A stretch of DNA of 64,000 nucleotides from a virus (IMGVR_UViG_3300046323_000234), one strand, 5' to 3'. Positions 25,101 through 61,179 are shown, counted from the stretch's first letter. Numbers and translations are program-made. Notes: generated by a model not told the origin, from the letters alone.

Positions 25101-25265
25101 AAACTTCAACCAATGGGTAAAGTGGCTGTGGATGTAAATTCAGATCCAATAGAAGATAATTTTATGGTTATAAAAAAAGGAAATGATTATGAAATCCATT
25201 TATATAAAGAAGGATATCTTAGAAAAGTAAAACAAATTAATACTGAACCAATATTTGCAGACTAA
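22101..25265 (+). CDS. family B DNA polymerase
   Basis: ExoI FDIET, ExoII YNGENFD, ExoIII YLLDD, motif A DFASLYPS, motif B KILNNSLFG, motif C VTDG. Confidence 0.93.
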   Translation: MIRKEELADVQKFLEGSSDKKYIVAIEGYSYYNYVECVIHDPEKGKYIEKMEYKPFIWLKDLPSNGINIYKDKEKRQEALDKYGLTIKKLKTGTQRRLEQGYKFIIHSTKSFNAIVSFFKDENIDIYSEQYRDLFFAVKPEEQFMIQNGIRLFKGYEKYNEVYKLTFDIETTGLLPENSRVFMIGIKDNKGFEHVCKIKKPNDDDEERKIIKQFFYVYNKLKPAIITTYNGENFDFEFIFKRCELLGLDYINDITTTLNPNKSIRRKENATVKYGNETGHYTQTIAWGYNIIDTIHAAKKTAAINKEIKNVKLKYLCQFEDIAKPNRMYINDGGNIFKYWINNKYFLINTSNNNYLQIPDDLQDIVKECINNGTNPLEHIDIKSIIDNSEEKYNSIITGSEIVDRYLLDDLWETEMLDNQYNESSFLLAKLIPTTFSRVCTMGTAAVWNLIMSEWSYINDIAIPIPDVGGKSKNEKYVAISEESGQEDGEEVEVDEFAVPAREESDSFDKISGGLARAYRIGYAESILKLDFASLYPSIQLTHGVFPNIDITNQLKKILLYLKITRDEYKYLSNDTSLDDISRQFYKTKQLPIKILNNSLFGALGSGVAFRWSDNDVAYRITTTGRVYLRQLIDWFYKRQFLPLLAVTDGVNFSIPSMVDIDINLNKLDKMIPINDIIYIDKNGKEHKGVNAYVEKYNTEVMNGDFMKIDHDGEWKSTLILSRINYANLTYESIDKKSGKVKPPKIKLTGNTIKSNTMPEYIEDYINVAMKHILENKPDLFIEHYYEYLAKIYYMQIPLKKIANKGRVKMSIKSYKNRGLNKNGKEKGKQAHMELLINANIPYEVGDLIYYVNTGTVKSHGDSKIIKDKVTKELRMASEMIDGKQLEQNPTMLGKYNIAKYIDNFNKRVEKILVGFSENVRNTLLKSDPTLREYYTDLDLKLYCHEKDNIEESMFLEQKEIEFWQKTGFNPYLITDVFKLPEGVDLMYNEYAKVINYINNKLQPMGKVAVDVNSDPIEDNFMVIKKGNDYEIHLYKEGYLRKVKQINTEPIFAD

Positions 25266-25708
25266 TGCTTTGTGGTTATATAAATCAAATATATGATATA
25301 ATTCACCAATCATTAATTGATGATGAATTTTCATATTCAGAAAAAATAAAATCGGATATGGATGATTTATTAAACTCACTTAAAGTTGTTGTAGTTCCAG
25401 AATATCCGAGTTCAATATTTTACGTAAACGATAAAGATGTTGTTTTTGAATATGAACATAAAATTAATTTCAATTTTAGATCAGTTTGGGGCAATGATAT
25501 TATATTATTTAATTCACCAGACAGTCCATTAGGCTTTTTATTAGATAATAATAAATCCAATTCTGTTATATATAGAGTTTTGGAAAAAATTATTCGGAGA
25601 ATGGAATTCCAAGAATTTGATATGCTAGTTGTTAATAGGATTGATTATATTGAAATGGATAGATCATGGGAATTTATTAAATCAAAATTAGCAAACAATT
25701 CACTTTAA
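25265..25708 (+). CDS. paralogous small protein, family A (MLCxYINxIY...DEF)
   Basis: N-terminus MLCGYINQIYDIIHQSLIDDEFSY shared with 39080, 39628, 40604, 60808. Confidence 0.7.
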   Translation: MLCGYINQIYDIIHQSLIDDEFSYSEKIKSDMDDLLNSLKVVVVPEYPSSIFYVNDKDVVFEYEHKINFNFRSVWGNDIILFNSPDSPLGFLLDNNKSNSVIYRVLEKIIRRMEFQEFDMLVVNRIDYIEMDRSWEFIKSKLANNSL

Positions 25709-25741
25709 CAATATAAACTATTTATAAGTAAAGTTATAAAA

Positions 25742-26392
25742 ATGCGAATCAAAGAAGTTTTAGATAAGAATTTAAATTTGTCAGTTGACAACGATAAACC
25801 AGTAGCTGGTGATAATTTGGAGACAATGGCTGATAAAACAACTGATTATAATGTTGGTGTTGGTAGACAAAATTATAATGATAATTTTATTGGTCAGTTT
25901 GGATCATATTTCTTTGAAGATGATAGTGATAAACATTCCACAAAACTAATAGACGTTTTTGCAAAGCAACAATTTGAAAGATATAAAGAAATATTAAACT
26001 ATTTTATTAAAAATATTTCAAAAGAAAATATATTGGAGTGGAAGAAAACAGCATCTAAATCATTTGATAGTTTATCCGATAAAGAAAAAGAATCTGATTA
26101 TAAATGGGCAAATAAAAATGTTGAAGCTTTAATGAAATATCTTAAAGAACAACATGATGGGATTGAAGAGAAGAAAATGAATGAGGATATTGTCACTAAA
26201 AATGATAATGATTTAATCTTAAAAGATAAAATAAAATTAACATTATCTGATATAAAAAATGATAAGGTTAGAGACTCTGTTAAAAAGCTTATTAATACAA
26301 TCAGAAAAGAAGGTAATGGTATCGATGTTAACCAAATCAAAGATATTATTGCCAATATAAATGATGTTGTTGAATCCAAAATGAACAAATAA
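25742..26392 (+). CDS. hypothetical late protein, possible internal head protein
   Basis: Late motif at 25716; charged and helical. Confidence 0.55.
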   Translation: MRIKEVLDKNLNLSVDNDKPVAGDNLETMADKTTDYNVGVGRQNYNDNFIGQFGSYFFEDDSDKHSTKLIDVFAKQQFERYKEILNYFIKNISKENILEWKKTASKSFDSLSDKEKESDYKWANKNVEALMKYLKEQHDGIEEKKMNEDIVTKNDNDLILKDKIKLTLSDIKNDKVRDSVKKLINTIRKEGNGIDVNQIKDIIANINDVVESKMNK

Positions 26393-26394
26393 TA

Positions 26395-27198
26395 ATGAAC
26401 AAGGATCTTTATAACAATACATATTCAGTGCCAGATCATGTTCTAAAGAATATTGAATTGGCAATAAATCATCATAAACCATCTGAAGACCATGCTGGAT
26501 ATGAGAGGGGAAGTAATACACTAAAAGAAAAAACTTTAACATATCAAAACCTAAAGAGATTAAAAAATTATTTTGATAATATAGATAAAGAGGGTTTTGA
26601 TCAAATAGAATTTGATTTGAATGGCGGTGAGAATATGAAGAATTTTATAAATGATACATTATCAACAGAAAGAAATAAAGTTAAAACAAGTAAAGAGAAT
26701 AAATCCGATTATGCTCAAATGGATAATCAGTTTAGAAAAACACACACTAAAGATGGTGTGAATGAAGATTTTAATATTGGTAAAATTGTTGAAAAAATTG
26801 TAATGGAAAAAATGGATGAGGTTAAAAGGGTATCTATTGCTATTATTATTGATAATAACGATAAATATTTTTTGGCGCAAAGAGAACCAAACGATGACTG
26901 GATGCCAAGTAAGTGGGCTTTTGTCGGTGGAACTGGTGAACCAAATGAAACACCAGAACAAACACTATATAGAGAACTTAAAGAAGAAATATCTGTCACA
27001 CCTAAATGGTTTGAAAAGAAAGATGCATTCCATAATCGAGAAACCAATACAATCGAAACGTTGTTCTTGGTTAAACTAAATGAAGGATATATTAAACTTG
27101 ATTATGAACATACAAATTTCGGTTGGTTTACAATAAAAGAAATACACCAATTAGATACTGTACCAAAGATTTTGGATTATATTTTAAAAACTAAGTAA
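26395..27198 (+). CDS. two-domain protein with C-terminal NUDIX hydrolase
   Basis: Nudix box GGTGEPNETPEQTLYRELKEE; EH..FGW. Confidence 0.85.
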   Translation: MNKDLYNNTYSVPDHVLKNIELAINHHKPSEDHAGYERGSNTLKEKTLTYQNLKRLKNYFDNIDKEGFDQIEFDLNGGENMKNFINDTLSTERNKVKTSKENKSDYAQMDNQFRKTHTKDGVNEDFNIGKIVEKIVMEKMDEVKRVSIAIIIDNNDKYFLAQREPNDDWMPSKWAFVGGTGEPNETPEQTLYRELKEEISVTPKWFEKKDAFHNRETNTIETLFLVKLNEGYIKLDYEHTNFGWFTIKEIHQLDTVPKILDYILKTK

Positions 27199-27205
27199 TA
27201 CCATT

Positions 27206-29451: not shown

Positions 29452-31407
29452 ATGAATAATATTAGTGATTTAGTAACAAATGGTGATTTTTCAGCATTTT
29501 ACGATATTTTCAAAGGAAATCAATCCAAAGATAGTCTTTTAGCTACGTTTAATAAACATAGAAATATGTTTGGATTAGCACCATTGGAGGTATTATCAGA
29601 TTCCAATAATATTATTGGTGGTAAGGCTGATAATAAATCTGTCGAAGATTTAATTAATACCTATGTTGATAAATTGAATAAACCACATGATGTTGTATAT
29701 AAATTAATTAATAAACAAATCCAATTGGGTATTGAAACTGAATTGGAGCATACTAATTCAGAAGAATTGGCTAAAGAAATAGCAATTGATCATATTAGTG
29801 AAAATCCATTATATTATACCAAATTAAAAAAATTTGGATTGGCTGATGAATTAAAAGAAACTAGTGATATTAATAAAAGAGAAATAAATCCAATCGAATA
29901 TGGGTGTTTAATGCTTAATCTTAAAGTTAAGAATTGGAATGAATTATTGGATAGGGTTAAACAAGAAGATGTATATGATGAGATTGGATTTGGTAAAGAA
30001 GATGAACCACATATAACAGTATTATATGGCTTCCATGATAATATCGATGTAGATCTTCTATTGGAAGATGTTAAATCAATAAAAGAACCAATCCAATATA
30101 AATTAACATCTGTTTCATTATTTGAAAATGAATTATATGATGTATTGAAATTCGATGTGGAAAGTGAAGATTTGATTAGATTGAATAAACACTTCAAGGA
30201 GAATTACGAAAATACATCAACATTTCCCAATTATCATCCACATTTAACAATTGCCTATATAAAATCAGGACTTGGAAAGAAATATGTTTTTGATTTAAAA
30301 AAATCAATTGAAGGTAAATCTAGCGATTTAACATATTCAACAGTTAATAAGAAAAAACATCATATTAAATTGGATAAAAAAATTGATGAAATGATTGGCA
30401 TAATGCCCAATTCATCACAAGTTGAAATAAAAAAACAATGCAAACTTGGTGGTAAGTCCGACGGAACTAGTGATGCTTGCAATCAAGGTGATATTAACAA
30501 TATTGAATTAACCAAGATCGATGAAACAAATCCAATAATTGAAAAGAAAAAGAATAAAAAATATAAATCAATTCGCAGACCAATAATGGGATTATATTAT
30601 GGTGCTGGTGCTGCTTATAATAATATAAATAATTATGATGGTGTAAGTGATGGTGGTGGAATGGAAGAATCATATGAGTATAATTTAAATAATAATATTG
30701 AAGATTCGGATATTGGATATGATTTTAAATCTAAAGATGGTTTAGAATATATGGTTAAATTTAGTAAAAAACATAATTTTGGTAAGTCTGGTGATAATAC
30801 ATATCTAGTATCATTTTTTACAGTAAAAAATAATGTAAAAAATTATTCAAGATTAGAAAATATTACTGATAGTATGGCAGTGATGTCAACCATAAAAAAT
30901 GTAATTAATGATTTTATTAATAAAAATGATAATCCATCATTAGTGTATTCACCAGATGCTAGTAGAAGCAAACATAGAATGGCCAAAACAAGAATCTATA
31001 ATGAATTATTTAATAGATTGAACTATACTACACAAGATATTGATAATGGTTACTATATAGCATCACCAAAAAATACATCACATCAAAAAACAATTGATGA
31101 AAATGAAACAAATAATAGATTTGATTTGGAATATGGATTTTTTGAAATATCTCCAAAATTTTCAACAAATGGTTCATTGTTTGTAACACATTTGGAATTA
31201 AATCAAGAAAGTAGAAATAGAGGTTTGTTTAAATCATTATTAAATGATATTATATCATATGCCAAAGAAAATGAATATACTAATATCGTTCTAGAACCAG
31301 ATATTACAAAAGGTAAAGACTATTATAATAAATTGGTAACATTATATAAAAAATATGGATTTAATGAGATTGAAGATGATCCATCATTATTAAAGTTAGA
31401 TTTTTAA
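29452..31407 (+). CDS. multidomain protein: DUF5661-like + 2H phosphodiesterase (Acb1/gp57B-like) + unknown domain + GNAT
   Basis: GIETELEH...AKEIAIDH..E.P.YYTKL; EPHITVLYG and YHPHLTIAY (two HxT); RNRGLFK...LYKKYGF. Confidence 0.75.
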   Translation: MNNISDLVTNGDFSAFYDIFKGNQSKDSLLATFNKHRNMFGLAPLEVLSDSNNIIGGKADNKSVEDLINTYVDKLNKPHDVVYKLINKQIQLGIETELEHTNSEELAKEIAIDHISENPLYYTKLKKFGLADELKETSDINKREINPIEYGCLMLNLKVKNWNELLDRVKQEDVYDEIGFGKEDEPHITVLYGFHDNIDVDLLLEDVKSIKEPIQYKLTSVSLFENELYDVLKFDVESEDLIRLNKHFKENYENTSTFPNYHPHLTIAYIKSGLGKKYVFDLKKSIEGKSSDLTYSTVNKKKHHIKLDKKIDEMIGIMPNSSQVEIKKQCKLGGKSDGTSDACNQGDINNIELTKIDETNPIIEKKKNKKYKSIRRPIMGLYYGAGAAYNNINNYDGVSDGGGMEESYEYNLNNNIEDSDIGYDFKSKDGLEYMVKFSKKHNFGKSGDNTYLVSFFTVKNNVKNYSRLENITDSMAVMSTIKNVINDFINKNDNPSLVYSPDASRSKHRMAKTRIYNELFNRLNYTTQDIDNGYYIASPKNTSHQKTIDENETNNRFDLEYGFFEISPKFSTNGSLFVTHLELNQESRNRGLFKSLLNDIISYAKENEYTNIVLEPDITKGKDYYNKLVTLYKKYGFNEIEDDPSLLKLDF

Positions 31408-31411: not shown

Positions 31412-32668
31412 ATGGCTAATATATATTTCAGTAAAAACGGCACATGGTATGATGCTTGCGATAGTTCAATATCCAAGAGTGGTACTTGGTATGATTTATC
31501 ATCCGTAGGTGGTTTTTCTGTATGTAAAAATGGTGTTTGGTATACTAATGAGTGTACATTCATTATACCAGCATTAGGTGGTTTTGATAATTTAATTAGA
31601 GAAATTACATATAAAAATAATAAATATTATATTGGTGGTGATTTTACAACATATAGTGGTACTACCACACCAACAGGAATAACTAAAAATAGGTTTATTG
31701 TATTAAATTCGGATGGTAGTATTGATAATACTGTTGAAATTGGGGATGGATTTAATAATACAATTAGAACAATATCATTTGATAATACAAAAATTTTAAT
31801 CGGTGGACAATTTACTACATACAGTGGTGTAACGTATAATAGAATCATTAAATTAAATTCTAATGGTTCAATTGATAATACGTTTCAGATTGGAAATGGA
31901 ATACAAGCTGGTGCAAATGCTGTTTTAAATTTTTTAAAAACTGCTGATAATGGTTATATTGTTACTGGTGACTTTGAAACATATAGCGGCATTACTAAAG
32001 GAAATATTGTAAAAATATTTAATAATGGTGAAATTGATAGCACATTTAAAATGGGTGTTGGTGTTGATGATGCTAATGATGTAATTAATTCAATATCTAT
32101 TGATAGTTCTGATAGAATATTAGTTGCAGGTAGATTTAGTACATATAGTGGTCTTACAGTAAATAACATATTTAGAATTAATTCAGATGGTTCAATTGAT
32201 AATACTTTCCCATTAAATGGTACAAATAATAGTGTTAGTAATGTTGATATTGATTCGGATGGAAATATATATCTTGCTGGTGTTTTTAGTTCATATAGTG
32301 GTATAACGTATGATAATTTAGTTAAATTAAAGTCAAATGGATATCCTGATGAAAGTTTTATTAATTATGGATTTAGTGGTACAATTAATTCAATCAAAAC
32401 ACAAACCAATAATAAATTATTGGTGGGAGGTTCAATAACATCATATAGTGGTATTTCTGTAAATGGTTTGGTTAGATTAAATAGTAATGGCGATTTTGAT
32501 CACACGTTAAATATTAATGATGGTTTTAATTTTGGTAGTATTGTTCGTGTAATTGAAACAATTGGTAATGACAAGATTATAATGGGCGGTACTTTTTCTA
32601 CATATAATAATGAATTAGCTAGAAATATTGTATTAATCTCATCTGGTGGTACTAGAATTTCAACATAA
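31412..32668 (+). CDS. delta-60-type repeat beta-propeller protein, probably virion-associated
   Basis: Seven repeats GG.F..YSG....I..LNS.G.ID.TF. Confidence 0.8.
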   Translation: MANIYFSKNGTWYDACDSSISKSGTWYDLSSVGGFSVCKNGVWYTNECTFIIPALGGFDNLIREITYKNNKYYIGGDFTTYSGTTTPTGITKNRFIVLNSDGSIDNTVEIGDGFNNTIRTISFDNTKILIGGQFTTYSGVTYNRIIKLNSNGSIDNTFQIGNGIQAGANAVLNFLKTADNGYIVTGDFETYSGITKGNIVKIFNNGEIDSTFKMGVGVDDANDVINSISIDSSDRILVAGRFSTYSGLTVNNIFRINSDGSIDNTFPLNGTNNSVSNVDIDSDGNIYLAGVFSSYSGITYDNLVKLKSNGYPDESFINYGFSGTINSIKTQTNNKLLVGGSITSYSGISVNGLVRLNSNGDFDHTLNINDGFNFGSIVRVIETIGNDKIIMGGTFSTYNNELARNIVLISSGGTRIST

Positions 32669-37563: not shown

Positions 37564-38016
37564 ATGACCAAAAAAAATATTAAAAGATTACCAAATTATG
37601 TGATGATGGGAAATACTGCATTTAGATTGGTGTTGACCGATAATTTATTTGAATATTATCGAGATGGTGGTTGTTGGGGAATAAAAGCTAAATGGATTAA
37701 TAATGAACTATATTCAGTAAATATGTATGGTCGTGATATGAAACATTTGGGTGGTAATAAATTAACTGAATGTACATTTGAGGTATGGAAAGAAAATAAT
37801 GGTCAATATGCTTCTGGGATTAAAGACAAATCCAAAAGCGAATATGTTTTATTGATTGAGGAAAGAATATTAGAATATAATAAACTATTAAATGTAACCA
37901 AACAAGGAATGGATTATTATACATTAAATGGAAAAATTGTTGATGTTCTACAAGAATTGTTAAGTGATATTCTTTATATTGAAAACGAAAAAACGGATAA
38001 TGATATCCCATTTTAA
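37564..38016 (+). CDS. hypothetical protein with SSB-like C-terminal tail
   Basis: Ends TDNDIPF. Confidence 0.6.
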   Translation: MTKKNIKRLPNYVMMGNTAFRLVLTDNLFEYYRDGGCWGIKAKWINNELYSVNMYGRDMKHLGGNKLTECTFEVWKENNGQYASGIKDKSKSEYVLLIEERILEYNKLLNVTKQGMDYYTLNGKIVDVLQELLSDILYIENEKTDNDIPF

Positions 38017-38027
38017 TAATAATAATT

Positions 38028-38243
38028 ATGTCAAAGAAACTAAAAACGCTAGAAGAAAATAATGCTCAAGCATTTCAATTCAGCAATCAATTTTCAAATG
38101 CACCACAACCTAATGGTGTTGAATGCCCACAATGCAAAAGTGAGTTATTGGATTCAAATCCAATGATGACTTTAACATCAATTCCAGCAAAAAAAAATAT
38201 ACATTGCAATCAGTGTGATTATGTTGGATATAGATTTGTTTAA
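38028..38243 (+). CDS. Zn-ribbon protein
   Basis: CPQC...CNQC. Confidence 0.7.
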   Translation: MSKKLKTLEENNAQAFQFSNQFSNAPQPNGVECPQCKSELLDSNPMMTLTSIPAKKNIHCNQCDYVGYRFV

Positions 38244-38260
38244 TTAATATTATAAAAATA

Positions 38261-39073
38261 ATGAGCAATAAGATAGATGGTGGTGGACTTCGTTATAACG
38301 AAGGTAAATTAAGATATGATTTAATTCCCAATTTTGCTGAAAAAGAATTTGTTAAGGTTTTGACTTATGGTGCAAATAAGTATGCACCTAACAATTGGAA
38401 AAGGGGTATGGATTGGAGTAAGGTACTTGCTTCATTAAAAAGACATATAGCAGCATTTGAAAATGGGGAGGATTTTGATCCTGAGACTTTTTCACATCAC
38501 ATGGCACACGTTATGTGTAATGCAGCATTTTTGGTTGAATACAGCAAGATATATCCACAAGGTGATAATAGACATCATAAGTATTTAAAAATGCCCAAGA
38601 TTGGACTTGATATTGATGAAGTCCTAGCGGATTGGGTTGGTCATTGGTCAAAGCATCATAAACAAGAAGTTCCAGAAACATGGAATTTTGATAGAGATAT
38701 AAAATCCAAATTTGATTCATTAAAAGATGATAAGGAATTTTGGTTATCTATACCAGTTAAAACAAATCCAAACGAAATTCATTTTGAACCGCACTGCTAC
38801 ATCACATCAAGATCAATTCCAAAAGAGTGGACTGAAGAATGGCTCGATAAAAATGGATTTCCAACCATGCCAGTATATTGTGTTGGATTCGAACAAAGCA
38901 AGGTTGATATAGCAAAACAATCTGGGATTGACATTTTTGTTGATGATAGATTTGAAAACTTTGTTGAATTAAATAATGCAGGTATCTGCTGTTATTTGTT
39001 TGATGCACCACATAATCAAAGATATAATGTGGGTTATAAAAGAATTAAATCATTATCAGAATTGTTTAATTAA
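38261..39073 (+). CDS. dATP/dGTP diphosphohydrolase (DUF5664) fused to HAD-family 5'(3')-nucleotidase
   Basis: GKLRYDLIP..VLTYGANKY..NW..RH..GED.DPE...HMAH..CNA.FL; then IGLDIDEVLAD, ITSR, K, FVDD. Confidence 0.85.
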   Translation: MSNKIDGGGLRYNEGKLRYDLIPNFAEKEFVKVLTYGANKYAPNNWKRGMDWSKVLASLKRHIAAFENGEDFDPETFSHHMAHVMCNAAFLVEYSKIYPQGDNRHHKYLKMPKIGLDIDEVLADWVGHWSKHHKQEVPETWNFDRDIKSKFDSLKDDKEFWLSIPVKTNPNEIHFEPHCYITSRSIPKEWTEEWLDKNGFPTMPVYCVGFEQSKVDIAKQSGIDIFVDDRFENFVELNNAGICCYLFDAPHNQRYNVGYKRIKSLSELFN

Positions 39074-39079
39074 TATAGT

Positions 39080-39625
39080 ATGTTAAGCAAATACATAACC
39101 AACATATACAAAGAGTATATTAATCCAGCACTATTAGGTGATGAATTATTATATTCAGAACTAATTAAAAATCTATATTTGGATTTATGGAACAATTGTA
39201 CACATATTGGAAAAAATAAATCGGATCTAGATAGATTGTTTTATGTAAAGGATAATATCATATGGTTTCAAATTTATTATCATAAATCAGATAATTTAAA
39301 CTACATATACATATATAAAGAGCCGTATGATATATTATTAAATCACGGACTACAATATAAAGAAATAAAACAATTATTTGATCAAATATTCCCATCGGAT
39401 AATATACCGAAGATTGTATTGGATACGATAGATGAAATAAATCCAGCAAATATTCAATCTGATAATATCAATGAAAATATATTACTGAATAATGCGAATG
39501 GTGGGGTCGGTTTCTCGTCCTACTACTGCGCTTTTCGGGATTCGTACTCGTTTACGGGTGGCCGTCTTTCGATTTTACGAGAATACGAATCCCTGCAAAG
39601 CAGGGCGAATAACGTTAAGATTTAA
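39080..39625 (+). CDS. family A paralogue with DGR-VR-like C-terminus
   Basis: MLSKYITNIYKEYINPALLGDELLY; ends NANGGVGFSSYYCAFRDSYSFTGGRL... Confidence 0.7.
   Translation: MLSKYITNIYKEYINPALLGDELLYSELIKNLYLDLWNNCTHIGKNKSDLDRLFYVKDNIIWFQIYYHKSDNLNYIYIYKEPYDILLNHGLQYKEIKQLFDQIFPSDNIPKIVLDTIDEINPANIQSDNINENILLNNANGGVGFSSYYCAFRDSYSFTGGRLSILREYESLQSRANNVKI
39491..39605 (+). other. putative DGR variable region, IMH and downstream hairpin
   Basis: 39500-39571 has 41/72 G+C and only 5 A; codons fit A-to-N derivatives of AAC/AAT; GxRL end; CCCTGC-AAA-GCAGGG hairpin at 39591-39605. Confidence 0.65.
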
Positions 39626-39627
39626 TT

Positions 39628-40056
39628 ATGAATATGACGATGGTTTCTGATTATATTTTTGATATTTATGTTAACCATATTATTGATAATTTAGAAAATA
39701 ATAGTGAATATAAATATAATAGATTAATAACATTACATATTGAACATTATATTAACAATAGAATTATTTCTATAAATGTTTACGAAAATTATCCCAATTC
39801 TAAGTTTTACATGTTTTATGATGGTGATATTGGATTTGAACTAATTGACGATAGTACAATATATCTTTCATTTGATTTTGTAGAACCTACATATTTTTTA
39901 ACAAAAACATATTATTATAATTGGTCAGAATATGTTGATTATTTTAAGGCGTTATTAAAATATATACCAATTATTTACGTTACTTATCACTCAAATATCA
40001 GTTCCGTTAGATGGAGACATTGTGGTAAATTAAAATCAACAACATTAATTAAATGA
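39628..40056 (+). CDS. family A paralogue
   Basis: MVSDYIFDIYVNHIIDNLENNSEYKY. Confidence 0.6.
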   Translation: MNMTMVSDYIFDIYVNHIIDNLENNSEYKYNRLITLHIEHYINNRIISINVYENYPNSKFYMFYDGDIGFELIDDSTIYLSFDFVEPTYFLTKTYYYNWSEYVDYFKALLKYIPIIYVTYHSNISSVRWRHCGKLKSTTLIK

Positions 40057-40598
40057 TGAATATAAATACAGATGAATTTGATTATGATAAATATAACATT
40101 AAAATGAATTTTAAAAACAATTTAGATGATCCAAATATTCTTTCACCAGAAATATTGGAAGCGATGGACAATATTTTACTTGTTTGTCCACATGTAGTCT
40201 TTGGTGGTTCAATCGCATTAAATGCTGTTGGTTTACTAAATAGAAAAATTAATGATATTGATGTTTTTGTTTCCAGAGAACAAAGCGTTTCATATATTGG
40301 AATAATGGAAGTTGTTTCAAGCGAACATTCAAATAATAGATTTTCGGAATCGACAACTGATGTTAATGGTGAACAAATCAGAAGAGTTGGAATGATTTGG
40401 AAAAACATTAAAATATGTTGTTTTTCTGTACCCGAAGAACAATTACAACATTCAATTTTTAAATTTAAAAAAAGAGTAATAAGAATCCAAAATGTTAATA
40501 ATGCAATACTAGCCAAAAGATCATATGCTGATAGAACAGCAAAACATAAACTAGATTTGGTTCAGATTGAAACTATAATTGATGATTTACCATTTTAA
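40053..40598 (+). CDS. nucleotidyltransferase-fold protein
   Basis: FGGSIAL...R...DIDV, KH..DL; ends DDLPF. Confidence 0.65.
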   Translation: MMNINTDEFDYDKYNIKMNFKNNLDDPNILSPEILEAMDNILLVCPHVVFGGSIALNAVGLLNRKINDIDVFVSREQSVSYIGIMEVVSSEHSNNRFSESTTDVNGEQIRRVGMIWKNIKICCFSVPEEQLQHSIFKFKKRVIRIQNVNNAILAKRSYADRTAKHKLDLVQIETIIDDLPF

Positions 40599-40603
40599 TT
40601 AAT

Positions 40604-41068
40604 ATGCTTTGTAATTACATAAATCAAATATATATTGAACATATTGGGCCAAATCTAATGGCTGATGAATTTACATATAATTATTATATTAGAGAACATA
40701 TTTTGGATTTATGGAATGATTGCACACACATTGCTGAAAAGGTAGTAAGTCCAGATCCAAAGAGTGTTTATTTTTTGAAAAATGATACAATTCAGTTTAA
40801 GATAACAATTTACTTTGATTCAATATTTATTACTACATATGATGAACCAATATGTTCTTTAAGTATAATTTTTGGATTATCAAAACAGATAGCGGTTAAA
40901 TTATTCTTAACTGTAATCCGCACAAATATTCAACACGTGATTCAAAAAACAATTGGTAATGTTAATGTTAATTTTGATCGTATAAGAAATTCATATTATG
41001 ATAGATCATATCTAGAAGATTATAACGTAAGCCTCAATCCAAATTTCATTGTTAAACCAATAGTATAA
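40604..41068 (+). CDS. family A paralogue
   Basis: MLCNYINQIYIEHIGPNLMADEFTY; also shares LDLWN.CTHI with 39080. Confidence 0.7.
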   Translation: MLCNYINQIYIEHIGPNLMADEFTYNYYIREHILDLWNDCTHIAEKVVSPDPKSVYFLKNDTIQFKITIYFDSIFITTYDEPICSLSIIFGLSKQIAVKLFLTVIRTNIQHVIQKTIGNVNVNFDRIRNSYYDRSYLEDYNVSLNPNFIVKPIV

Positions 41069-41085
41069 AATTTATAATATAAATC

Positions 41086-41120
41086 AAATCCCTATTACTT
41101 AATTGTGGTAGGGATTTTTT
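41086..41120 (+). terminator. intrinsic terminator
   Basis: AAATCCCTATTAC...GTGGTAGGGATTTTTT. Confidence 0.75.
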
Positions 41121-41152
41121 ATTTAGTGCTATTTATATGAAAGAATTTAATA

Positions 41153-41557: not shown

Positions 41558-41561
41558 AAAA

Positions 41562-44074: not shown

Positions 44075-44272
44075 ATGCTTGTTTTAAAAGTCGCAGAAGG
44101 TAAATTCATTTATTCTCAATATGTGAAAGAAATCTTAAATCAGATATTAATAAATATTCAATATTCTGAATTAAATGTGTCAATAAGTAAAGGTGATCAT
44201 TTTAATACATATAGATTTGATTTATCAGACAAAAAATATATTAGATTAGTTTATTTGTGGAAACCTATATAA
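44075..44272 (+). CDS. family B small paralogue 1
   Basis: YSQYVKEILNQILINIQYSEL. Confidence 0.65.
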   Translation: MLVLKVAEGKFIYSQYVKEILNQILINIQYSELNVSISKGDHFNTYRFDLSDKKYIRLVYLWKPI

Positions 44273-44274
44273 TA

Positions 44275-44475
44275 ATGAACAAGAGAGTAGCATATTATCA
44301 AATTTGCAATAAAGATATAGATTACGGCTATTCAATGTATTTATATCCTATATTAAATAAAATTTTAATAAATATGCCCGATGATGAATTGGATTATGTT
44401 TTTATTAAATATAATGTTAGAACATATCGCACATTTTTTAATGATATTGAGATGGATTATCATATTATGTTTTAG
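44275..44475 (+). CDS. family B small paralogue 2
   Basis: YSMYLYPILNKILINMPDDEL; ATG at 44275 preferred over GTG at 44257. Confidence 0.65.
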   Translation: MNKRVAYYQICNKDIDYGYSMYLYPILNKILINMPDDELDYVFIKYNVRTYRTFFNDIEMDYHIMF

Positions 44476-44477
44476 TT

Positions 44478-44663
44478 ATGGATACATTCTTTAAGATTTC
44501 AAAACCTGAGTATCAATATTGTCAATATTTAGAGCCAATCTTAAATTCGATTTTTGAAAATATAATGATTGATGAATTTAATAATTTTGTTGAATATAGA
44601 TATTATGTGGCATATTTTAACGATATTAGATTAAAATATAAAATAAACGATTTACCATTTTAA
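44478..44663 (+). CDS. family B small paralogue 3
   Basis: YCQYLEPILNSIFENIMIDEF; ends NDLPF. Confidence 0.65.
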   Translation: MDTFFKISKPEYQYCQYLEPILNSIFENIMIDEFNNFVEYRYYVAYFNDIRLKYKINDLPF

Positions 44664-44674
44664 TGATATAACCA

Positions 44675-44893
44675 ATGCCTTACAAAATTAACGAAAGTAG
44701 TTATAAGTACTCAATATATCTAAAACCCATCTTATCCAATATTTTGGAAAATATGTTAACAGATAGTGAAATTATGGAACTATGTGATTTAGGTTCTACT
44801 TTTTATGATAATAGATTTTTGCGTAGTCAAATTGTACTTGATTATGTTTTTCACCATAATAGAGAATCCATTAATAAAGTATCCATATTATAA
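44675..44893 (+). CDS. family B small paralogue 4
   Basis: YSIYLKPILSNILENMLTDSEI. Confidence 0.65.
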   Translation: MPYKINESSYKYSIYLKPILSNILENMLTDSEIMELCDLGSTFYDNRFLRSQIVLDYVFHHNRESINKVSIL

Positions 44894-44910
44894 ATAACAA
44901 TCACTATATA

Positions 44911-45123
44911 ATGTTCAGATATCAAGTTAATAATAGAAATTTCACATATTGCCAACATTTAGTGCCAATCCTAAATAAGATATTCACTAATATAGAAACT
45001 GGTGAATTAAGGGGTATTGTATCAGTTGACTCATTTTTCCAAATGAAATTTGGTGAAATTGATATGAAATTAGTTCAATATGTTACTTTTGAATTTGATT
45101 TTGAAATGGATGTTGAAAATTGA
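44911..45123 (+). CDS. family B small paralogue 5
   Basis: YCQHLVPILNKIFTNIETGEL. Confidence 0.65.
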   Translation: MFRYQVNNRNFTYCQHLVPILNKIFTNIETGELRGIVSVDSFFQMKFGEIDMKLVQYVTFEFDFEMDVEN

Positions 45124-45155
45124 AACCTTTTAATTGATTGTACGTTAGATTACAC

Positions 45156-46484
45156 ATGAAAAGAATGATACAAATTGCGAGAAGGCTTAAAACAATGGGA
45201 ATAACATCATATTTTGTTGGTGGTTATGTTAGAGATGGGATTATGGGCATAACCTCCGATGATATAGACATTTGTTTGATTGGAGTTAAGGATAAGGAAG
45301 CTTTAACACAGATTTTATCACATTTGTGTGACAAATTAACCATTGAAGTTGGTGAGAAGTTTCCTGTTTGGATAGCAACAATTGATGATAAGAAGATTGA
45401 TTTTGCTTTAGGTAGAGCCGAATTAAAATCTGGCCAATCCAGAAAAGACTTTGATATTATTGTTGATGATGTTTCTATTGAGCAAGATTTGCTTAGAAGA
45501 GATTTCACAATCAACGCAATAGCAAAAGATATCCTATCTGGTGAATATATTGATCCATATGGTGGTATATCTGATATAACCAAAATGCGATTAACGCATG
45601 TATCTGATGCATTTGCGGAAGATAGTTTAAGAGTGTTAAGAGCAGCTAGGTTTGCAAGTAGATTTGATTTATTACCAAGTGATGAACTTAAACAATTGTG
45701 TAAATCAATCAAACCAACTGATATATCAAACGAAAGAGTTGGTATGGAGTTGTATAAAATGCTTCATCAAGCAACAAAACCATCAATCTTTTTTAGATTT
45801 TTGAAAGATGTTGATTGGCTTGATTATTATTTTAAAGAACTATCAGATTTGATTGGTATTCAACAAGACCCAATCTGGCATCCAGAGGGTGATGCATTTG
45901 AACATACAATGCATACATTGGATCAAGCAAGTGATTATTTGATTAGATTGGCAATGATTTGTCATGACCTTGGAAAAGCATCAACAACGGTATTTCGAAA
46001 AGGTAGATGGACGGCCTATGGTCACGATGTTGCTGGATTAGAACCAACCCAAAAAATGCTTGAAAATCTGAAATATTTTGATGGCAAGACAATAAAACAA
46101 ATATTGGTTTTGGTTGAATTTCATATGGTTCACACACAACAGAAAATATCTGATAAATATTTGAAAAAGATACTTAGAAGACTATTGGAAGTTGGTTTAA
46201 CATATGAACATCTTGTTGAAGTTTGTAGATGTGATGTATCAGGTAGACCACCGATTGAAGGTTGTACACCAGACATAAGACAAAAGGATATTGATGCAAT
46301 ATTGCTAAGTGATGAGTTAAGACCAATCGTAACTGGTCAGGTCTTAATTGATGAATTTGAATTAACACCATCACCATCATTTAAAACAATATTAAAACAA
46401 TGTTTAGATTTGCAAGATGCAAAAAAATTAAATAAATTAAACTATGTTTGCTTTGTTAAACAGTTCATTAAACAAGTAGCATAA
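45156..46484 (+). CDS. cca: tRNA nucleotidyltransferase (CCA-adding) with HD domain
   Basis: VGGYVRD, DIDI, DLLRRDFTINA, EDSLRVLRAARF, ERV..E, WHPEGD..EHT, CHDLGK; ATG at 45156 preferred. Confidence 0.92.
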   Translation: MKRMIQIARRLKTMGITSYFVGGYVRDGIMGITSDDIDICLIGVKDKEALTQILSHLCDKLTIEVGEKFPVWIATIDDKKIDFALGRAELKSGQSRKDFDIIVDDVSIEQDLLRRDFTINAIAKDILSGEYIDPYGGISDITKMRLTHVSDAFAEDSLRVLRAARFASRFDLLPSDELKQLCKSIKPTDISNERVGMELYKMLHQATKPSIFFRFLKDVDWLDYYFKELSDLIGIQQDPIWHPEGDAFEHTMHTLDQASDYLIRLAMICHDLGKASTTVFRKGRWTAYGHDVAGLEPTQKMLENLKYFDGKTIKQILVLVEFHMVHTQQKISDKYLKKILRRLLEVGLTYEHLVEVCRCDVSGRPPIEGCTPDIRQKDIDAILLSDELRPIVTGQVLIDEFELTPSPSFKTILKQCLDLQDAKKLNKLNYVCFVKQFIKQVA

Positions 46485-50136: not shown

Positions 50137-53100
50137 TTGGCAACAAGAAGAGTCATTAATGGTAATATAAATTATGATTTGGTTGGTGGTTCTTTTAAGA
50201 ATTCTCCATCACAAACCCTATTCAGTGCAGGTGATTTCTCATTAGAGACAAATCTATCAAATAGAAACATCAGAAATTATAATAATGTTCTGGGTGTATT
50301 TCTTGAACCAATTACATTGGAGAACATCAATCTAACAGTTGATGAATCCAAAACAATCTCCACATTATCACAAAGATTATTATTAAACTACGATAAGACA
50401 GATCTAAACAACTATGCCAAGTTTGGATCATTAGCTGAATATATTAGAATTTCTATTGAAGAGATTATAACAAAATTTCCAGCTAGTATGTATGTACCCA
50501 ACATATTTGATAGACAGATGTATAATACTGTTAATGATTATTCATATGATATATATTCAAATACTGCAACATTTAGAACACCAATTGCGCCAATCGAAAA
50601 CAATTTCGGATTAATATATGATTATGGCAATAGTCAATATCCAGAGGGATTGGAGATTAGAAATTTAAATCTATCATATAACTTATATTCAATATTTAGA
50701 AACACATCAAGAACAACAGAGTATAATATTATTGGATTTACTGGATATTCAGATACTAGCATATATTTTAAAGTTAGTGGTAATCCATTTACTGAATTAA
50801 CTGTTACAACTGGATTAACAACATTATCGACAACATTTCATATTAAACCAAATTTCTCAACATATAATAAAGCAATAAAAGATTTATCTGATTTTGAAGA
50901 ATTTTTGTTAGCAAATAAATCAATTGACGGTTATATAATTAAGTTAAAAATACCACAGCAAAATGATAGGGGTGAGAGTGTATTAATTGACACTCAAATA
51001 TTATGGCCAACAAGTGATGGTTATAATATTGATATATCTGGTTCGGAATACGGTGAATTTTTACAAAGATTATATAATGTCGGAGTTCAATATGATGATT
51101 ATAAAACCGATCTAATATATAGATTTTTAACACCACAATCATTAAAATCGTATGATTTAACATCAGATCAAAAAATATCAAAATTACTTAGAGTATATGG
51201 TAGAGAATTTGATGAAATAAAACGTTTCATTGATTCAATATCATATTTAAATAAAATTAATTATGATAAGAAAAATAACATACCAGATGTATTAATTAAA
51301 AATTTTGCAAGGGTATTTGGTTGGGATACATTTAACTTAGTTGATGAAAATGATTTATTAAAAAGATTTTTCGGTGATAGTTCTAGTGAAGATAGTGAAT
51401 CATATCTACCAGCAGAAGTTGATATTGAATTATGGAGAAGAATTGTTTTAAACACTAATTACTTTTGGAAATCAAAGGGAACTAGAGAAGCTATTAGATC
51501 AATGTTCTTATTCTTAGGAATACCAGATTCATTAATATCAATCAATGAGTATGTTTATACTGTAGATGAAAAAATAAATGTTGACACTATTGAATTGGCA
51601 ATCGATATTAGATCGACATCCAATCCATATAATTCTGAAGGTTATCCAATATCACCATTAGAAGATTCTAGATTTTATTTTCAATTAAGTGGAAATACCG
51701 ATGGTGGTAATGCTTATATGGATAATTTTAGGAATGTTGGATTTAAATTAAATAGAACAGTAGATAATAAAAAATCATGGACGTATACTGGTGCGACAGT
51801 TAGGAATGATACTGAAACTAATTATACACAAAATGATAGTAAATTAATAATTAATACAAAAGAGATTGATGTATCATTTGATATAGCTAGAGGTATTGAA
51901 TATGAATTTTATAAATATAATAGTTTATATAACTATCCAATATCATCAACTGGCGTTACTATGCCATTTTTATATATAAACATTCCTTTGGATATAACTG
52001 GTTCATCACAAACTAATTTTATTATTCCAGAAGAACAGTTAGGTGATATACAAGTAAATATAAATGGTATTACATTGGCCATCGGTACAATCCCAGGCGA
52101 AAACGATTATTATATCAATCCATTAAACGAGCAAGAAATTATATTAAACGTATCTGCATATAAAAACTATGTTGGATTTAATGATACAATATCTGTTACA
52201 TATACAGTAGATAGAAGCGGTGTATTAACATCAGCAACTGTTAAATATGTTGTAACAAAATTTGCCGTAACATCTGATGGTCAAACTGTATTTACACTAC
52301 CAAAAGAACCTGCTGGTGATGTTCAATTAACATTAAATGGTGTAACATTAACAAAAGGTATTGGTGCAACTGACGGTGATTATATAATAAACCCATCAAA
52401 TCGAAAAGAGGTTATTGTAAGATCATCAATATTGGGTGCATATTTAAAAACAACAGATACAATTGTAATAACATATTTGGAAATTAATGATACATCAATA
52501 TTGGTTGAAAAATATTCAGATTTTCATAGAGTAACATCATTGTTCGCTAGTAACTTCTATTATAATTCATTGCTTAATAAGTTTACATATATAATGCAAT
52601 ATAGTGCATTTAATGAATACGCAATGAAAGTTATAGTAAATGGTATAACTTTAACTAATGATGTTGATTTTACATTATCATCAACAAATAAAAAACAAAT
52701 ATTTTTTAACGCACCACTTAGGATTGGTGATACAATAAATATATTTTATTATATTAATACTGGTGATGCTGGTTTAGGTGCATATAGTTTTAGTGATGGA
52801 AGTATTGCATCTGAGATGACGTTCTTGGAATTTATTAATAAAATAACACGAGAATTTATTGATGCAAAAGATAGAAAGATTATTACAAATTATGAAGGTG
52901 GTTACTACCCAACATTATCAACATTGTATGATTTATACTATAATGGACAAACTCAAAGTGGTACGACATTTTTAAATAATTATAATTTTATAAAGTTATA
53001 TAAATACCTAAACAATTTTAATGGGTATTTTCAAACATTTGTATCACAATTATTGCCAGCAACAGCAATTTTAAGAAAAGGTGGTATATCAATCCGAAAT

Positions 53101-54285
53101 ACAATTTTTCATCAACAAAAATTCACATATAAAGCTGGATATTATGATAGTGGAAAATCAGATTATGGATCTGAATTTGTTGTAACATCACAAGATTTTA
53201 TGGATTTTGGAAATGGTTTTAATAATACGGTAAATACAGCATTAAAGTTGGATGATGGTTATTTGATTGGTGGAAGTTTCACATCATATAGTGCAAATAC
53301 TGGTAACATATCAGCTAATAGATTAATAAATTTAAATAATAGAGGTTATGTTAATAATAATTTTATTATTGGTTCTGGTTTTAGTGATGGAATTGTTTAT
53401 AAAATATTAAGAACACATGATAATAAGTATTTAATGTGTGGTTCATTTACATCATATAATGGCACATCATCTAATAGAATTGTAAAATTAAATATTGATG
53501 GAACTATTGATTCAACCTTCACAACTGGTAGTGGATTTGGTAATCAAGTATATGATATGTCAATCCAATCCGATGGTAAAATACTTGTCGGTGGAGAATT
53601 TACATCATATAGTGGTGTAACTACCAGAAATAGAATCATTAGATTAAATTCTGGTGGTACAATTGATAATACGTTTCAGATTGGATCTGGTTTTGATACT
53701 ATAGTTAGAACGTTAGCTATTCAATCTGATGGTAAAATACTTGTCGGTGGAGAATTTACATCATATAGTGGTGTTTCTAAAAGTAGAATTATTAGATTAA
53801 ATACTGGTGGAACTATTGATGAAACTTTTCAGATTGGTACTGGTTTTAGTGGCAGTGGTTTAGTGTTAGATATTGAACAACAATCCGATGGTAAAATACT
53901 TGTTGGTGGTAGTATTGAAAGTTATGATGTTGAACCATCATTAAATAATATTATTAGATTAAATTCAGACGGTAGTGTTGATACAATATTTGGAGATGGT
54001 TTCGATGGTACTGTTAGAGCAATAAAACAACAATCAAATAATAAAATATTAGTTGGTGGTGATTTTCAAATATATAGTGGTATAACATCAAATAAAATTA
54101 TTAGATTAAATACTAACGGTAGTGTTGATTCAACATTTGGTGATGGATTTGCTGGCTCAGTTACAAATATTCTAATCAATTCAGATGATGAAATTATAAT
54201 AATGGGTGATTATAATACATATGATGGACAGGTTGCCAATGATATTATTAGAATTAATAATGATGGAAATAAAACATCGGATTAA
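50137..54285 (+). CDS. large baseplate/tail protein with VNG..L modules and C-terminal delta-60 beta-propeller
   Basis: FGSL, EFDEIK.FID, NIPD.L....A..FGW, WRR.VLN......KSKGTR.AI; C-terminal QSDGKILVGG.F repeats; late motif at 50112. Confidence 0.75.
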   Translation: MATRRVINGNINYDLVGGSFKNSPSQTLFSAGDFSLETNLSNRNIRNYNNVLGVFLEPITLENINLTVDESKTISTLSQRLLLNYDKTDLNNYAKFGSLAEYIRISIEEIITKFPASMYVPNIFDRQMYNTVNDYSYDIYSNTATFRTPIAPIENNFGLIYDYGNSQYPEGLEIRNLNLSYNLYSIFRNTSRTTEYNIIGFTGYSDTSIYFKVSGNPFTELTVTTGLTTLSTTFHIKPNFSTYNKAIKDLSDFEEFLLANKSIDGYIIKLKIPQQNDRGESVLIDTQILWPTSDGYNIDISGSEYGEFLQRLYNVGVQYDDYKTDLIYRFLTPQSLKSYDLTSDQKISKLLRVYGREFDEIKRFIDSISYLNKINYDKKNNIPDVLIKNFARVFGWDTFNLVDENDLLKRFFGDSSSEDSESYLPAEVDIELWRRIVLNTNYFWKSKGTREAIRSMFLFLGIPDSLISINEYVYTVDEKINVDTIELAIDIRSTSNPYNSEGYPISPLEDSRFYFQLSGNTDGGNAYMDNFRNVGFKLNRTVDNKKSWTYTGATVRNDTETNYTQNDSKLIINTKEIDVSFDIARGIEYEFYKYNSLYNYPISSTGVTMPFLYINIPLDITGSSQTNFIIPEEQLGDIQVNINGITLAIGTIPGENDYYINPLNEQEIILNVSAYKNYVGFNDTISVTYTVDRSGVLTSATVKYVVTKFAVTSDGQTVFTLPKEPAGDVQLTLNGVTLTKGIGATDGDYIINPSNRKEVIVRSSILGAYLKTTDTIVITYLEINDTSILVEKYSDFHRVTSLFASNFYYNSLLNKFTYIMQYSAFNEYAMKVIVNGITLTNDVDFTLSSTNKKQIFFNAPLRIGDTINIFYYINTGDAGLGAYSFSDGSIASEMTFLEFINKITREFIDAKDRKIITNYEGGYYPTLSTLYDLYYNGQTQSGTTFLNNYNFIKLYKYLNNFNGYFQTFVSQLLPATAILRKGGISIRNTIFHQQKFTYKAGYYDSGKSDYGSEFVVTSQDFMDFGNGFNNTVNTALKLDDGYLIGGSFTSYSANTGNISANRLINLNNRGYVNNNFIIGSGFSDGIVYKILRTHDNKYLMCGSFTSYNGTSSNRIVKLNIDGTIDSTFTTGSGFGNQVYDMSIQSDGKILVGGEFTSYSGVTTRNRIIRLNSGGTIDNTFQIGSGFDTIVRTLAIQSDGKILVGGEFTSYSGVSKSRIIRLNTGGTIDETFQIGTGFSGSGLVLDIEQQSDGKILVGGSIESYDVEPSLNNIIRLNSDGSVDTIFGDGFDGTVRAIKQQSNNKILVGGDFQIYSGITSNKIIRLNTNGSVDSTFGDGFAGSVTNILINSDDEIIIMGDYNTYDGQVANDIIRINNDGNKTSD

Positions 54286-60101: not shown

Positions 60102-60109
60102 TTAAAAAT

Positions 60110-60313
60110 ATGGAAATAAAAACAGTAAGTTCATTTAAATTAAATGAAAGAGAAATTAAAGATGCAATTAGAAACTATTGTGTTGATAAATTAAGAGAAT
60201 TTGAAAATATAGAATTGGAAAACGTTGATATACTTGGATATGATAATGATGTAAAGGCAACTGTTAATGACTTTGTTGCTATAGTAACGGTTGTTAAAAC
60301 TAATGTAATATAA
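60110..60313 (+). CDS. hypothetical protein
   Basis: ORF in operon. Confidence 0.5.
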   Translation: MEIKTVSSFKLNEREIKDAIRNYCVDKLREFENIELENVDILGYDNDVKATVNDFVAIVTVVKTNVI

Positions 60314-60324
60314 ATTAATTAATT

Positions 60325-60804
60325 ATGTTAAAAAATACTGATATTAAAGTTGGTAATTGGATTGGTAGTGGTGTGAAATTTGAAGACACATCACTTATTG
60401 GTAATGTTCTTGAAATTGGTAACGATGATAGGGAATTTGAACAAGTCTGGTGTCAATGCGATGAAAGTTTCGAGTGGTTTTTTAAAGATAACTATTGTGG
60501 AATTCCAATAACAAATGATTGGCATATTCTTCTTGGTGGTGTAAAAAATGGATTTAATTCATATGAATATGATATCTCTAGATTTGAATCTGGTGAATTA
60601 AAATTATCATTTTCTGGTGATTATTTAATAATAACTGAATTTGATAAAGATAAGAAAATTCCAAACGATTTAATTGTCTTGTGGAATAAAGACATAAAGA
60701 AAGAATTTTATGTTCACGAGTTCCAAAATTTATATAAATCAATAACAGGTAAAGATTTAGTTTACAATATTGAAGATGTTTATAAAAAGTTTGAAAAATT
60801 ATAA
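60325..60804 (+). CDS. hypothetical protein of a common Bacteroidota phage family
   Basis: (L/I)KVGNW, IPIT..W..L.G, YVHE.QNLY...TG..L. Confidence 0.6.
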   Translation: MLKNTDIKVGNWIGSGVKFEDTSLIGNVLEIGNDDREFEQVWCQCDESFEWFFKDNYCGIPITNDWHILLGGVKNGFNSYEYDISRFESGELKLSFSGDYLIITEFDKDKKIPNDLIVLWNKDIKKEFYVHEFQNLYKSITGKDLVYNIEDVYKKFEKL

Positions 60805-60807
60805 GTT

Positions 60808-61179
60808 ATGTTCTGCAATTATATAAATGATATTTATAAAAACCATATTCACCCCAATCTAATAGATGATGAGTTTAAATACACAAAACTTTTAGAGGAA
60901 ACTTTTTTTGATTTATATAATCAAATATCATATAAACAACATTCAAATTGGGGTATTGAATATTGTATGAATAAAGGAACTATATTATTTAGATTGGTTA
61001 GAATTACAACAAAAACTGATGCATTATATTGTACCAATAGTTCATTTAATATTATGATGGATATTTTTAATAATAAAAACTGCAATATTTATCATAATAT
61101 AGAATTGATTATATATAAATATCAATTATTTAATATTATTGACGGTAATTTTTTTTATGTTACAAGATTAAAATTATAA
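60808..61179 (+). CDS. family A paralogue
   Basis: MFCNYINDIYKNHIHPNLIDDEFKY. Confidence 0.7.
   Translation: MFCNYINDIYKNHIHPNLIDDEFKYTKLLEETFFDLYNQISYKQHSNWGIEYCMNKGTILFRLVRITTKTDALYCTNSSFNIMMDIFNNKNCNIYHNIELIIYKYQLFNIIDGNFFYVTRLKL

Follow-up and report, generated by a model that had tools for sequence, protein, structure and literature searches.

The question raised by this locus is whether ten small genes, spread between positions 25265 and 61179 of a 64,000-nt stretch of viral DNA (IMGVR_UViG_3300046323_000234; the whole stretch is called the window in the following), belong to one family, and what purpose a segment common to all of them could serve. A first-pass annotation of the window had assigned five dispersed genes to a family A and five clustered genes to a family B, and had proposed that both share a motif of about 22 residues on otherwise divergent bodies, the motif being a docking helix for a common partner. 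Our analysis confirms that there is a real family, and that it is larger than the ten genes first seen. Together with a third family, C, which is encoded outside the window, A and B may constitute a single superfamily of small accessory proteins, restricted to one lineage of phages, in which a constant module is combined with variable bodies, and we estimate the probability of this reading as a whole at about 45%.

All ten open reading frames (ORFs) were found on the + strand, their positions agreeing with the stated ones exactly or to a few codons, and the motif strings quoted for them are found in the translations (A4, residues 2-23; B3, residues 14-34). The five family A genes of the window are A1 (25265..25708, 147 aa, MLCGYINQIYDIIHQSLIDDEF...), A2 (39080..39625, 181 aa), A3 (39640..40056), A4 (40604..41068, 154 aa, MLCNYINQIYIEHIGPNLMADEF...) and A5 (60808..61179, 123 aa, MFCNYINDIYKNHIHPNLIDDEF...), all on the + strand and ranging from 123 to 181 aa in length. 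The start of A3 was moved from 39628 to 39640 (MVSDYIFDIY...), which is most likely the correct position because the gene is called so on the strain contig and because every family member starts at Met1. A2 has a C-terminal insertion that is absent from the other family A members. In blastp comparisons the A proteins match each other over 40-124 residues (A2 with A4: 124 aa aligned, E 2e-17), and when the 768 ORFs that the window has in six frames are scored by a family A hidden Markov model (HMM), the members obtain 126-205 bits and the next ORF stays below 10 bits.

Searched exhaustively with a profile, 1.84 billion representatives yielded 24 family A proteins at E<1e-3, 19 of them beyond the five of the window. 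These 19 have lengths of 100-165 aa, except for one fusion protein of 474 aa, which is also the only exception to the rule that the proteins (23 of the 24) measure 100-181 aa and align from residue 1. Their consensus reads MLCNYLNDIYxNHIHPNLxDDEFxYS...FLDLWN. Among the 23 members, mean pairwise identity falls from 0.60 in the first ten-residue block to 0.46, 0.40 and 0.26 in the following three, to 0.21-0.24 at residues 41-70, and to about 0.11 past residue 70. This gradient bears out the proposed architecture, in which the N-terminal module is under strong constraint and the bodies diverge fast, with two corrections: conservation is indeed strongest at the N-terminus, but in family A it extends weakly to about residue 70 and thus beyond a motif of some 22 residues, and the bodies are divergent in family A but not in family B, whose members resemble each other along all of their 60 aa. 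The literal consensus given by the first-pass annotation occurs in 4 of the ten genes and a relaxed version in 7, with no occurrence elsewhere in the six frames or in 200 shuffles; as the pattern was derived from the ten sequences themselves, such a scan speaks for its specificity only.

Five of the further members (P0017, P0019, P0020, P0025 and P0028) are encoded on a contig of 171,483 bp, which is also the length of the metagenome contig with the proteins of the window, i.e. of the genome of an uncultivated phage of about 171 kb, and six additional copies lie on a near-identical strain contig (loci L018/L019). As counted from these sequences, the genome would contain at least 10 and probably about 16 copies of family A. 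Curated libraries do not cover these proteins. None of the ten window genes scores above threshold in Pfam-A, PHROGs v4 or NCBIfam, the closest match being that of B1 to YpmT (20.3 bits at a cut-off of 25), none of the 24 family A members matches a PHROG, and profile searches of PDB sequences gave no match below E 5. Word-indexed searches with the A profile and the first B profile returned this phage and its strain variants only, and with a B profile of 16 rows they returned, beyond this phage, only the input sequences from a related contig, L007. A module-based search for related loci found one viral contig of the same sample series and none among metagenome contigs. A relationship to T4 AsiA, a protein with a ‘LIDEF’ string, was considered and dropped, with no AsiA match in the Pfam scan or in the PDB profile searches.

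Family B is a tandem array of five + strand genes encoding 61-72 aa: B1 (44075..44272, 65 aa from the ATG at 44075), B2 (44275..44475, 66 aa from the ATG at 44275), B3 (44478..44663, 61 aa, ...YCQYLEPILNSIFENIMIDEF..., ending in NDLPF), B4 (44675..44893, 72 aa) and B5 (44911..45123, 70 aa). Every pair is mutually matched by blastp, the family B HMM scores the members at 83-97 bits against the same 768 ORFs with the next below 10 bits, and the motif is internal, at residues 12-35. Family C lies on the strain contig of the same genome and consists of four tandem genes encoding 61-74 aa that start with MKPCKYILEIHSNIVINYLTxEEF. In size and tandem layout it resembles B, in the position of the motif at Met1 and in the spacing it resembles A, and two single genes near the C array have the B-type spacing. 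The C array overlaps the start of an RlaP-type nucleotidyltransferase gene, after which two A copies follow, so that array, nucleotidyltransferase gene and A copies are contiguous (L019:2322-4421 and 5616-6405). Another related contig encodes an A-sized protein with B-type spacing (L005:7794-8225). The 474-aa fusion protein is encoded on L007, the 172,824-bp contig of a related phage (region 10001-14300), and joins an N-terminal A module to another, degenerate A-like domain and to a GatB/YqeY domain (E 1.4e-22); in GatB, this is a tRNA-binding domain. Just 3' of the fusion gene, after two small unrelated genes, eleven tandem B-like genes encode proteins of 57-76 aa with the motif YPHSILLKPILSDLLxxLxxSxEL. 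The placement of the module before an unrelated GatB/YqeY domain is what would be expected of a portable module, and in this sense the fusion, as read from its sequence, supports the modular architecture.

Do A, B and C belong together? In hhalign comparisons, five A sequences align with five B sequences at P 0.027, and with 24 A sequences the alignment to the five B sequences reaches P 0.0018 over 34 columns, with exactly the one-residue gap that had been proposed. The score of A with the five-sequence B alignment was reached by none of 150 column shuffles. A aligns with C at P 6e-4, and C aligns with the five-sequence B alignment at P 1.8e-4 in the same register as in A-C; in both cases none of 200 column-shuffled controls reached the score. 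When ranked together with about 950 unrelated ORFs, B members take positions 2, 3, 7 and 8 with the A model, and A members take positions 1, 4, 5 and 9 with the B model. Measured against the shuffles, the A-B alignment is thus above chance and its gap is reproduced, but it is weaker than the first-pass annotation had implied, and marginal if taken alone.

Structure prediction gives an idea of what the module may look like. The AlphaFold2 (AF2) model of B3 has a mean predicted local distance difference test (pLDDT) value of 71.5 and contains strand 4-7, helices 15-27 and 31-37, and strands 42-47 and 50-59, and it thus shows a small beta-alpha-alpha-beta-beta domain, of which the motif would form the first helix and the turn leading to the second. 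For A1, the AF2 prediction (pLDDT 46, from a 5-row alignment) has helices at residues 2-13 and 21-37, with three strands in the part up to residue 64, which, at this low confidence, is the order of elements seen in B3 without the leading strand. As judged from these models, B and C may correspond to the N-terminal 60-65 residues of A, in which case the motif may not be a docking peptide that can be separated from the rest, but just the helix that is best conserved in the core of a small domain. Atlas models of P0012 and P0014 are poor (pLDDT 0.38 and 0.37). A two-copy complex prediction of B3 with the 16-row alignment scored 0.01 against a mark of 0.42, which has no bearing on self-association. 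The shapes closest to the B3 model are RNA recognition motif (RRM) domains in VIA-align (Z 3.6) and the C-terminal domain of isoleucyl-tRNA synthetase (IleRS) in the Atlas (TM 0.54), and RelE-, ParE- and GraT-like entries are among the nearest as well (Z 2.4-2.7, TM 0.46-0.48, for a model of pLDDT 71.5).

The A copies had been described as inserted at the ends of non-structural operons, and this is correct for the five copies of the window but not for all copies elsewhere in the genome. As boundary of a transcription unit in the window we took the promoter-like motif CTATTTATA[AT], which occurs 19 times where 2.3 occurrences are expected, 17 times on the + strand and mostly in intergenic positions just before start codons (e.g. 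at 25718, 32687, 34334, 41129, 46526, 50112, 54298 and 55909). It stands before structural genes and several enzyme genes, and the sampled early-type region of L018/L019 lacks it. A1, whose start overlaps the stop of the gene for a family-B DNA polymerase (22101-25265), is the final gene of a unit after SNF2 helicase and polymerase, ahead of the promoter-like motif at 25718. A2 lies 3' of a dATP/dGTP diphosphohydrolase-NT5C gene (38261-39073), and A2, A3, a non-member gene X and A4 are the last four genes of the unit, after the nucleotide hydrolase. The boundary behind this unit, whose last gene is A4, is marked on the + strand by a terminator-like hairpin at 41086-41117 (13-bp stem, T-run) and, before the gp25 baseplate gene, by the promoter-like motif CTATTTATAT at 41129-41138. 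With A5, a unit that includes a gene for an Mre11/SbcD-like exonuclease comes to its end on the + strand, and convergent genes on the - strand lie beyond it. Outside the window, A copies form tandem runs among early-type genes without the CTATTTATA motif, some of them after a sigma-factor gene and some after an RlaP-type nucleotidyltransferase gene. The family has grown through tandem duplications, and copies have dispersed to permissive sites, which in the window are the 3' ends of units with replication, nucleotide-metabolism and recombination genes. A gene for a ClpP-family protease (62877-63644, 182.8 bits) is located 1.7 kb downstream of A5 and adjoins a gp13-like neck gene on the opposite strand.

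Several results weigh against the assumption of one superfamily with a constant module. The hhalign probabilities for A and B are just 1-15%, and when B was widened to 16 rows by the eleven B-like sequences of L007, the alignment with A had P 0.047 and a shifted register. Iterative HMMER searches at E<1e-3 leave A and B separate, and in leave-one-family-out searches the omitted family scores 7-10 bits, which is in the range of noise. What the families have in common is mostly the periodicity of an amphipathic helix and E-[FL], in a very AT-rich genome whose proteins abound in I, N, K and Y. With its low pLDDT, the model of A1 is not reliable enough to equate the fold of A(1-65) with that of B, and comparisons of the B3 model by Foldseek with the PDB, by VIA-align in wide mode and by Atlas shape search gave nothing above background. 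P0025 is overlapped at its 3' end by the next large gene and hence is not unit-terminal. The motif HMM that was to link A and B failed to do so: with motif-only models of 25 residues from A, B scored no better than shuffled B (empirical P 0.08-0.58; in the reverse direction 0.045-0.86), and the iterative searches never merged the families. A and B could therefore be seen as unrelated orphan families, with a chance or compositional likeness of amphipathic N-terminal helices in an AT-rich proteome, and the low hhalign probabilities, the moving register and the cross-family HMMER scores of at most 12 bits, again in the noise range, all fit this view. It is nevertheless unlikely, as the hhalign scores of A with the five B sequences, of A with C and of C with the five B sequences beat every column-shuffled control, each family's model puts the other family at top ranks, intermediates exist in the form of family C and of the L005 protein, and A-type and B-type genes are adjacent in two phages. 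Our estimate of a common descent was raised by this cross-ranking, by the position of the L007 fusion gene beside B-like genes and by the bridging family C; the leave-one-family-out scores stay in the noise, but from sequence comparison it is probable that A, B and C inherited the module from a common ancestor. A different objection would be that the conserved 5' segment is kept at the DNA level, as a recombination handle by which bodies are shuffled or homogenised, and not for a function of the protein. The copies P0028 and P0020 behind the RlaP-type gene could be taken as an example, as they agree in 65 of 69 nt over the module (20 of 23 third positions) and decay to background identity within about 120 nt, which on the sequence level suggests local gene conversion or body swapping, and adjacent copies have module ‘dialects’ in common. 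However, module DNA identity is only 55-75% in most pairs, and over 11 family A copies the identity is 0.65, 0.77 and 0.52 at codon positions 1, 2 and 3, while 37% of the identical residues are encoded by different codons. As third positions are the least conserved and identical residues use differing codons, selection acts on the protein and not on the DNA; local gene conversion may occur, yet it cannot explain the family-wide conservation, and the handle explanation has very little probability.

If the module is kept for the protein, it could still serve purposes other than docking. The constant N-terminus might be a virion- or capsid-targeting signal (CTS) as in T-even phages, in which case the members would be variable counter-defence proteins that are packaged and then injected. 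Every stand-alone A member carries the conserved peptide at Met1, on diverse proteins of 100-180 aa, which is the size range of T4 IPI-IPIII, and genes for a T4-type portal, gp23 and S77 prohead protease are carried by related contigs of the phage clade. T-even internal proteins (IPI, IPII, IPIII and the polymorphic IP loci) are likewise small, dissimilar proteins with a conserved peptide at the extreme N-terminus that are present in multiple copies and vary among related phages; these diverse proteins act against host defence and have only the CTS in common (PMC3012670). In contrast to them, the family described here has a conserved region of about 25-40 aa instead of 10 aa, followed by weaker conservation as far as about residue 70, its sequences are not similar to those of T4 internal proteins and match neither Pfam nor PHROG entries, and it has no T4-type [L/I]-x-E protease site, since the P3 residue before the conserved Glu22 is non-hydrophobic (D, G, A, E, K or S); no other conserved Glu exists in residues 1-40 of the family A alignment. 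Moreover, most copies lie among replication or early-type genes without the CTATTTATA motif, and in B the motif is internal, so that a targeting signal is improbable. The internal position in B also argues against the idea that the module is a recognition tag, i.e. a degron or adaptor handle, by which the phage ClpP homologue or an AAA+ protease of the host achieves a timed turnover or delivery of the members. The free N-terminus of the motif in A and C and the ClpP-family gene near A5 would agree with such a tag, but the ClpP homologue may simply be a prohead protease, given its position beside the gp13-like neck gene, and by our reading no known class of N-terminal ClpX or ClpS signals matches; the tag is very improbable. 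Finally, the members could be involved in an RNA or tRNA conflict, either by binding or regulating tRNA-repair enzymes or by blocking tRNA nucleases of the host. This idea can refer to the end of the B array 15 nt before a tRNA nucleotidyltransferase gene (45138..46484, + strand; CCA-adding/poly(A) polymerase head domain), which is itself no member, to the overlap of the C array with the RlaP-type gene that two A copies follow, to the GatB/YqeY fusion, and to the IleRS, RRM and RelE/ParE shapes among the weak best folds of B3. All these fold matches are below meaningful thresholds, however, the genome is gene-dense, with other copies beside polymerase, exonuclease, sigma factor and baseplate operon, and the B-like array of L007 is followed by an ART-PolyVal gene and not by a nucleotidyltransferase, so that a dedicated role in tRNA conflicts is about as improbable as a targeting signal.

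The superfamily reading, i.e. A, B and C as variations of one constant module, would then imply the following organization. The module would comprise about 60-65 aa, and in its predicted form it would consist of helix 1 with the motif, a turn with the acidic D-E-[FL], helix 2 and a beta-hairpin. B and C would be module-only proteins of 57-76 aa in tandem arrays, and A would be the module from Met1 with a rapidly diverging C-terminal extension of 40-110 aa. The constant module would provide one molecular contact for all members, through either a partner or a fold core that they have in common, the variable bodies would confer differing specificities, and the members would act early in host takeover or counter-defence and be subject to diversifying pressure. 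The docking adaptor that had been envisaged fits the architecture and the YqeY fusion; it is nevertheless doubtful whether the module really serves to dock all members to one partner and is not just a conserved structural core. The suggested likeness to F-box proteins did not hold, as a Pfam search of the ten genes at E up to 1 found no F-box or other adaptor domain. An even wider view, which we regard as quite unlikely, would place roughly a tenth of the genes (about 16 A, 5 B and at least six C-like genes, on our estimate of about 250 genes in 171 kb) in one modular system, with the module plugging the bodies into one partner. Candidates for this partner would be the phage ClpP homologue or the RNA/tRNA-repair nucleotidyltransferases beside three of the arrays, and B and C might compete for the docking site or regulate it.

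In any case, a new protein superfamily that is absent from curated libraries is defined hereby, and studies of structure and binding can make use of a definite collection of sequences, which comprises the three families, their intermediates and the YqeY fusion. The reach is narrow, as the family is known from a few related freshwater metagenome samples only. If the module were a common handle, the phage would have a natural library in which one interaction surface is combined with dozens of bodies, and this could be a compact system for how phages diversify host takeover or counter-defence, and possibly a portable targeting tag.

Other known systems resemble the family in certain aspects. In the F-box, BTB and ankyrin expansions of eukaryotes, poxviruses and giant viruses, a short constant module is likewise combined with variable bodies in many copies per genome, but the proteins described here are far smaller and have no detectable adaptor domain, and the likeness is one of architecture only. 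The hyperplastic regions of T4-like phages are also strain-variable tandem arrays of orphan genes for 60-150 aa among early genes, and array size differs between related phages here as well (5 B genes in this phage, 11 B-like genes in L007). In contrast to such regions, the arrays and the dispersed copies here appear to be one superfamily with a shared N-terminal module, which would be an unusually large share of the genes of a genome. RelE/ParE-type small domains have the order beta-alpha-alpha-beta-beta-beta, and the predicted order of B3 is similar but one strand short; the scores are at background level, and there is neither a sequence signal nor an antitoxin-like partner gene.

One family A member had been suggested to carry a variable region of the type generated by diversity-generating retroelements (DGRs). 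The 3' part of A2 indeed contains a GC-rich, A-poor island on the + strand (39497..39575; 5 A in 72 nt) and, just 3' of it, a perfect hairpin, CCCTGC-AAA-GCAGGG (39591-39605). A template copy of 39497-39575 was not found in the window (blastn, word size 7), the five matches of a 16-nt anchor to viral contigs are all due to chance, and no RVT domain was detected in the scanned window ORFs or in the Pfam lists of the flanking loci, which cover part of the ORFs. Furthermore, the island is identical in the strain contig L001, and the A2 protein cluster is a single sequence on 4 contigs. Island and hairpin thus exist, but no template repeat or reverse transcriptase was found in the sequence covered, nor any strain variation, and the DGR reading of A2 is unsupported. 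Over 3.7 kb, the window and L001 differ at one place only, where the variable body of A3 has an in-frame indel of 18 nt.

Gene X (40053..40598, + strand, 181 aa), which lies between A3 and A4, has a weak DUF7277 match as its sole family match and a GGS...DIDVF pattern that looks nucleotidyltransferase-like by eye, by which a family assignment was not achieved. It ends in DDLPF, and acidic tails of this kind, resembling the tip of single-stranded DNA-binding protein (SSB), end three unrelated small proteins of the window: gene X, B3 (44478-44663, NDLPF) and the product of 37564-38016 (DNDIPF). Within family B the tail occurs in one of the five genes, B3, and it is retained by a B3-like chimera, P0011 (68 aa, from an 864-bp European Nucleotide Archive contig), whose C-terminal half is B3-like and whose N-terminal half resembles the start of a YqaJ-type recombinase; P0011 is probably a recombinant or a miscalled gene.

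The window has a G+C content of about 27%, and nearly all of its genes are on the + strand. It encodes a DnaB-like helicase, a ribonucleotide reductase, the SNF2 helicase and the family-B DNA polymerase, furthermore gp25, a gp6-like baseplate wedge subunit, the tRNA nucleotidyltransferase, the Mre11/SbcD-like exonuclease and the ClpP homologue. The polymerase is 20-28% identical to that of any isolated phage, and a blastn comparison of positions 38001-46000 with isolated phages gave almost no matches and no close relative. L016, which prolongs the 3' end of the window at 100% identity and holds the family A copy P0017, carries a TnpB/Cas12f-like gene and a tyrosine recombinase gene just past this end (L016:5768-6898 and 10195-10995). 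On the related contig L005, an intein interrupts the T4-type portal gene (10503-13598). Within the window, an 878-aa gene (47464-50100) contains nine tandem copies of a 96-nt (32-aa) repeat at 48484-49551. Two genes (31412-32668 and 50137-54285) contain DUF5122 beta-propeller repeats that are alike at the DNA level, too, and the 1382-aa DUF5122 gene product is probably a fibre or receptor-binding protein. A 651-aa multi-domain protein (29452-31407) combines DUF5661 with a 2H phosphoesterase domain (LigT/2'-5' RNA ligase-like), its match to Acb1 being weak and sub-threshold. At 19815-20213, a 5-nt indel between the window and the strain contig L002 shortens a 132-aa gene to 70 aa in one of the two.

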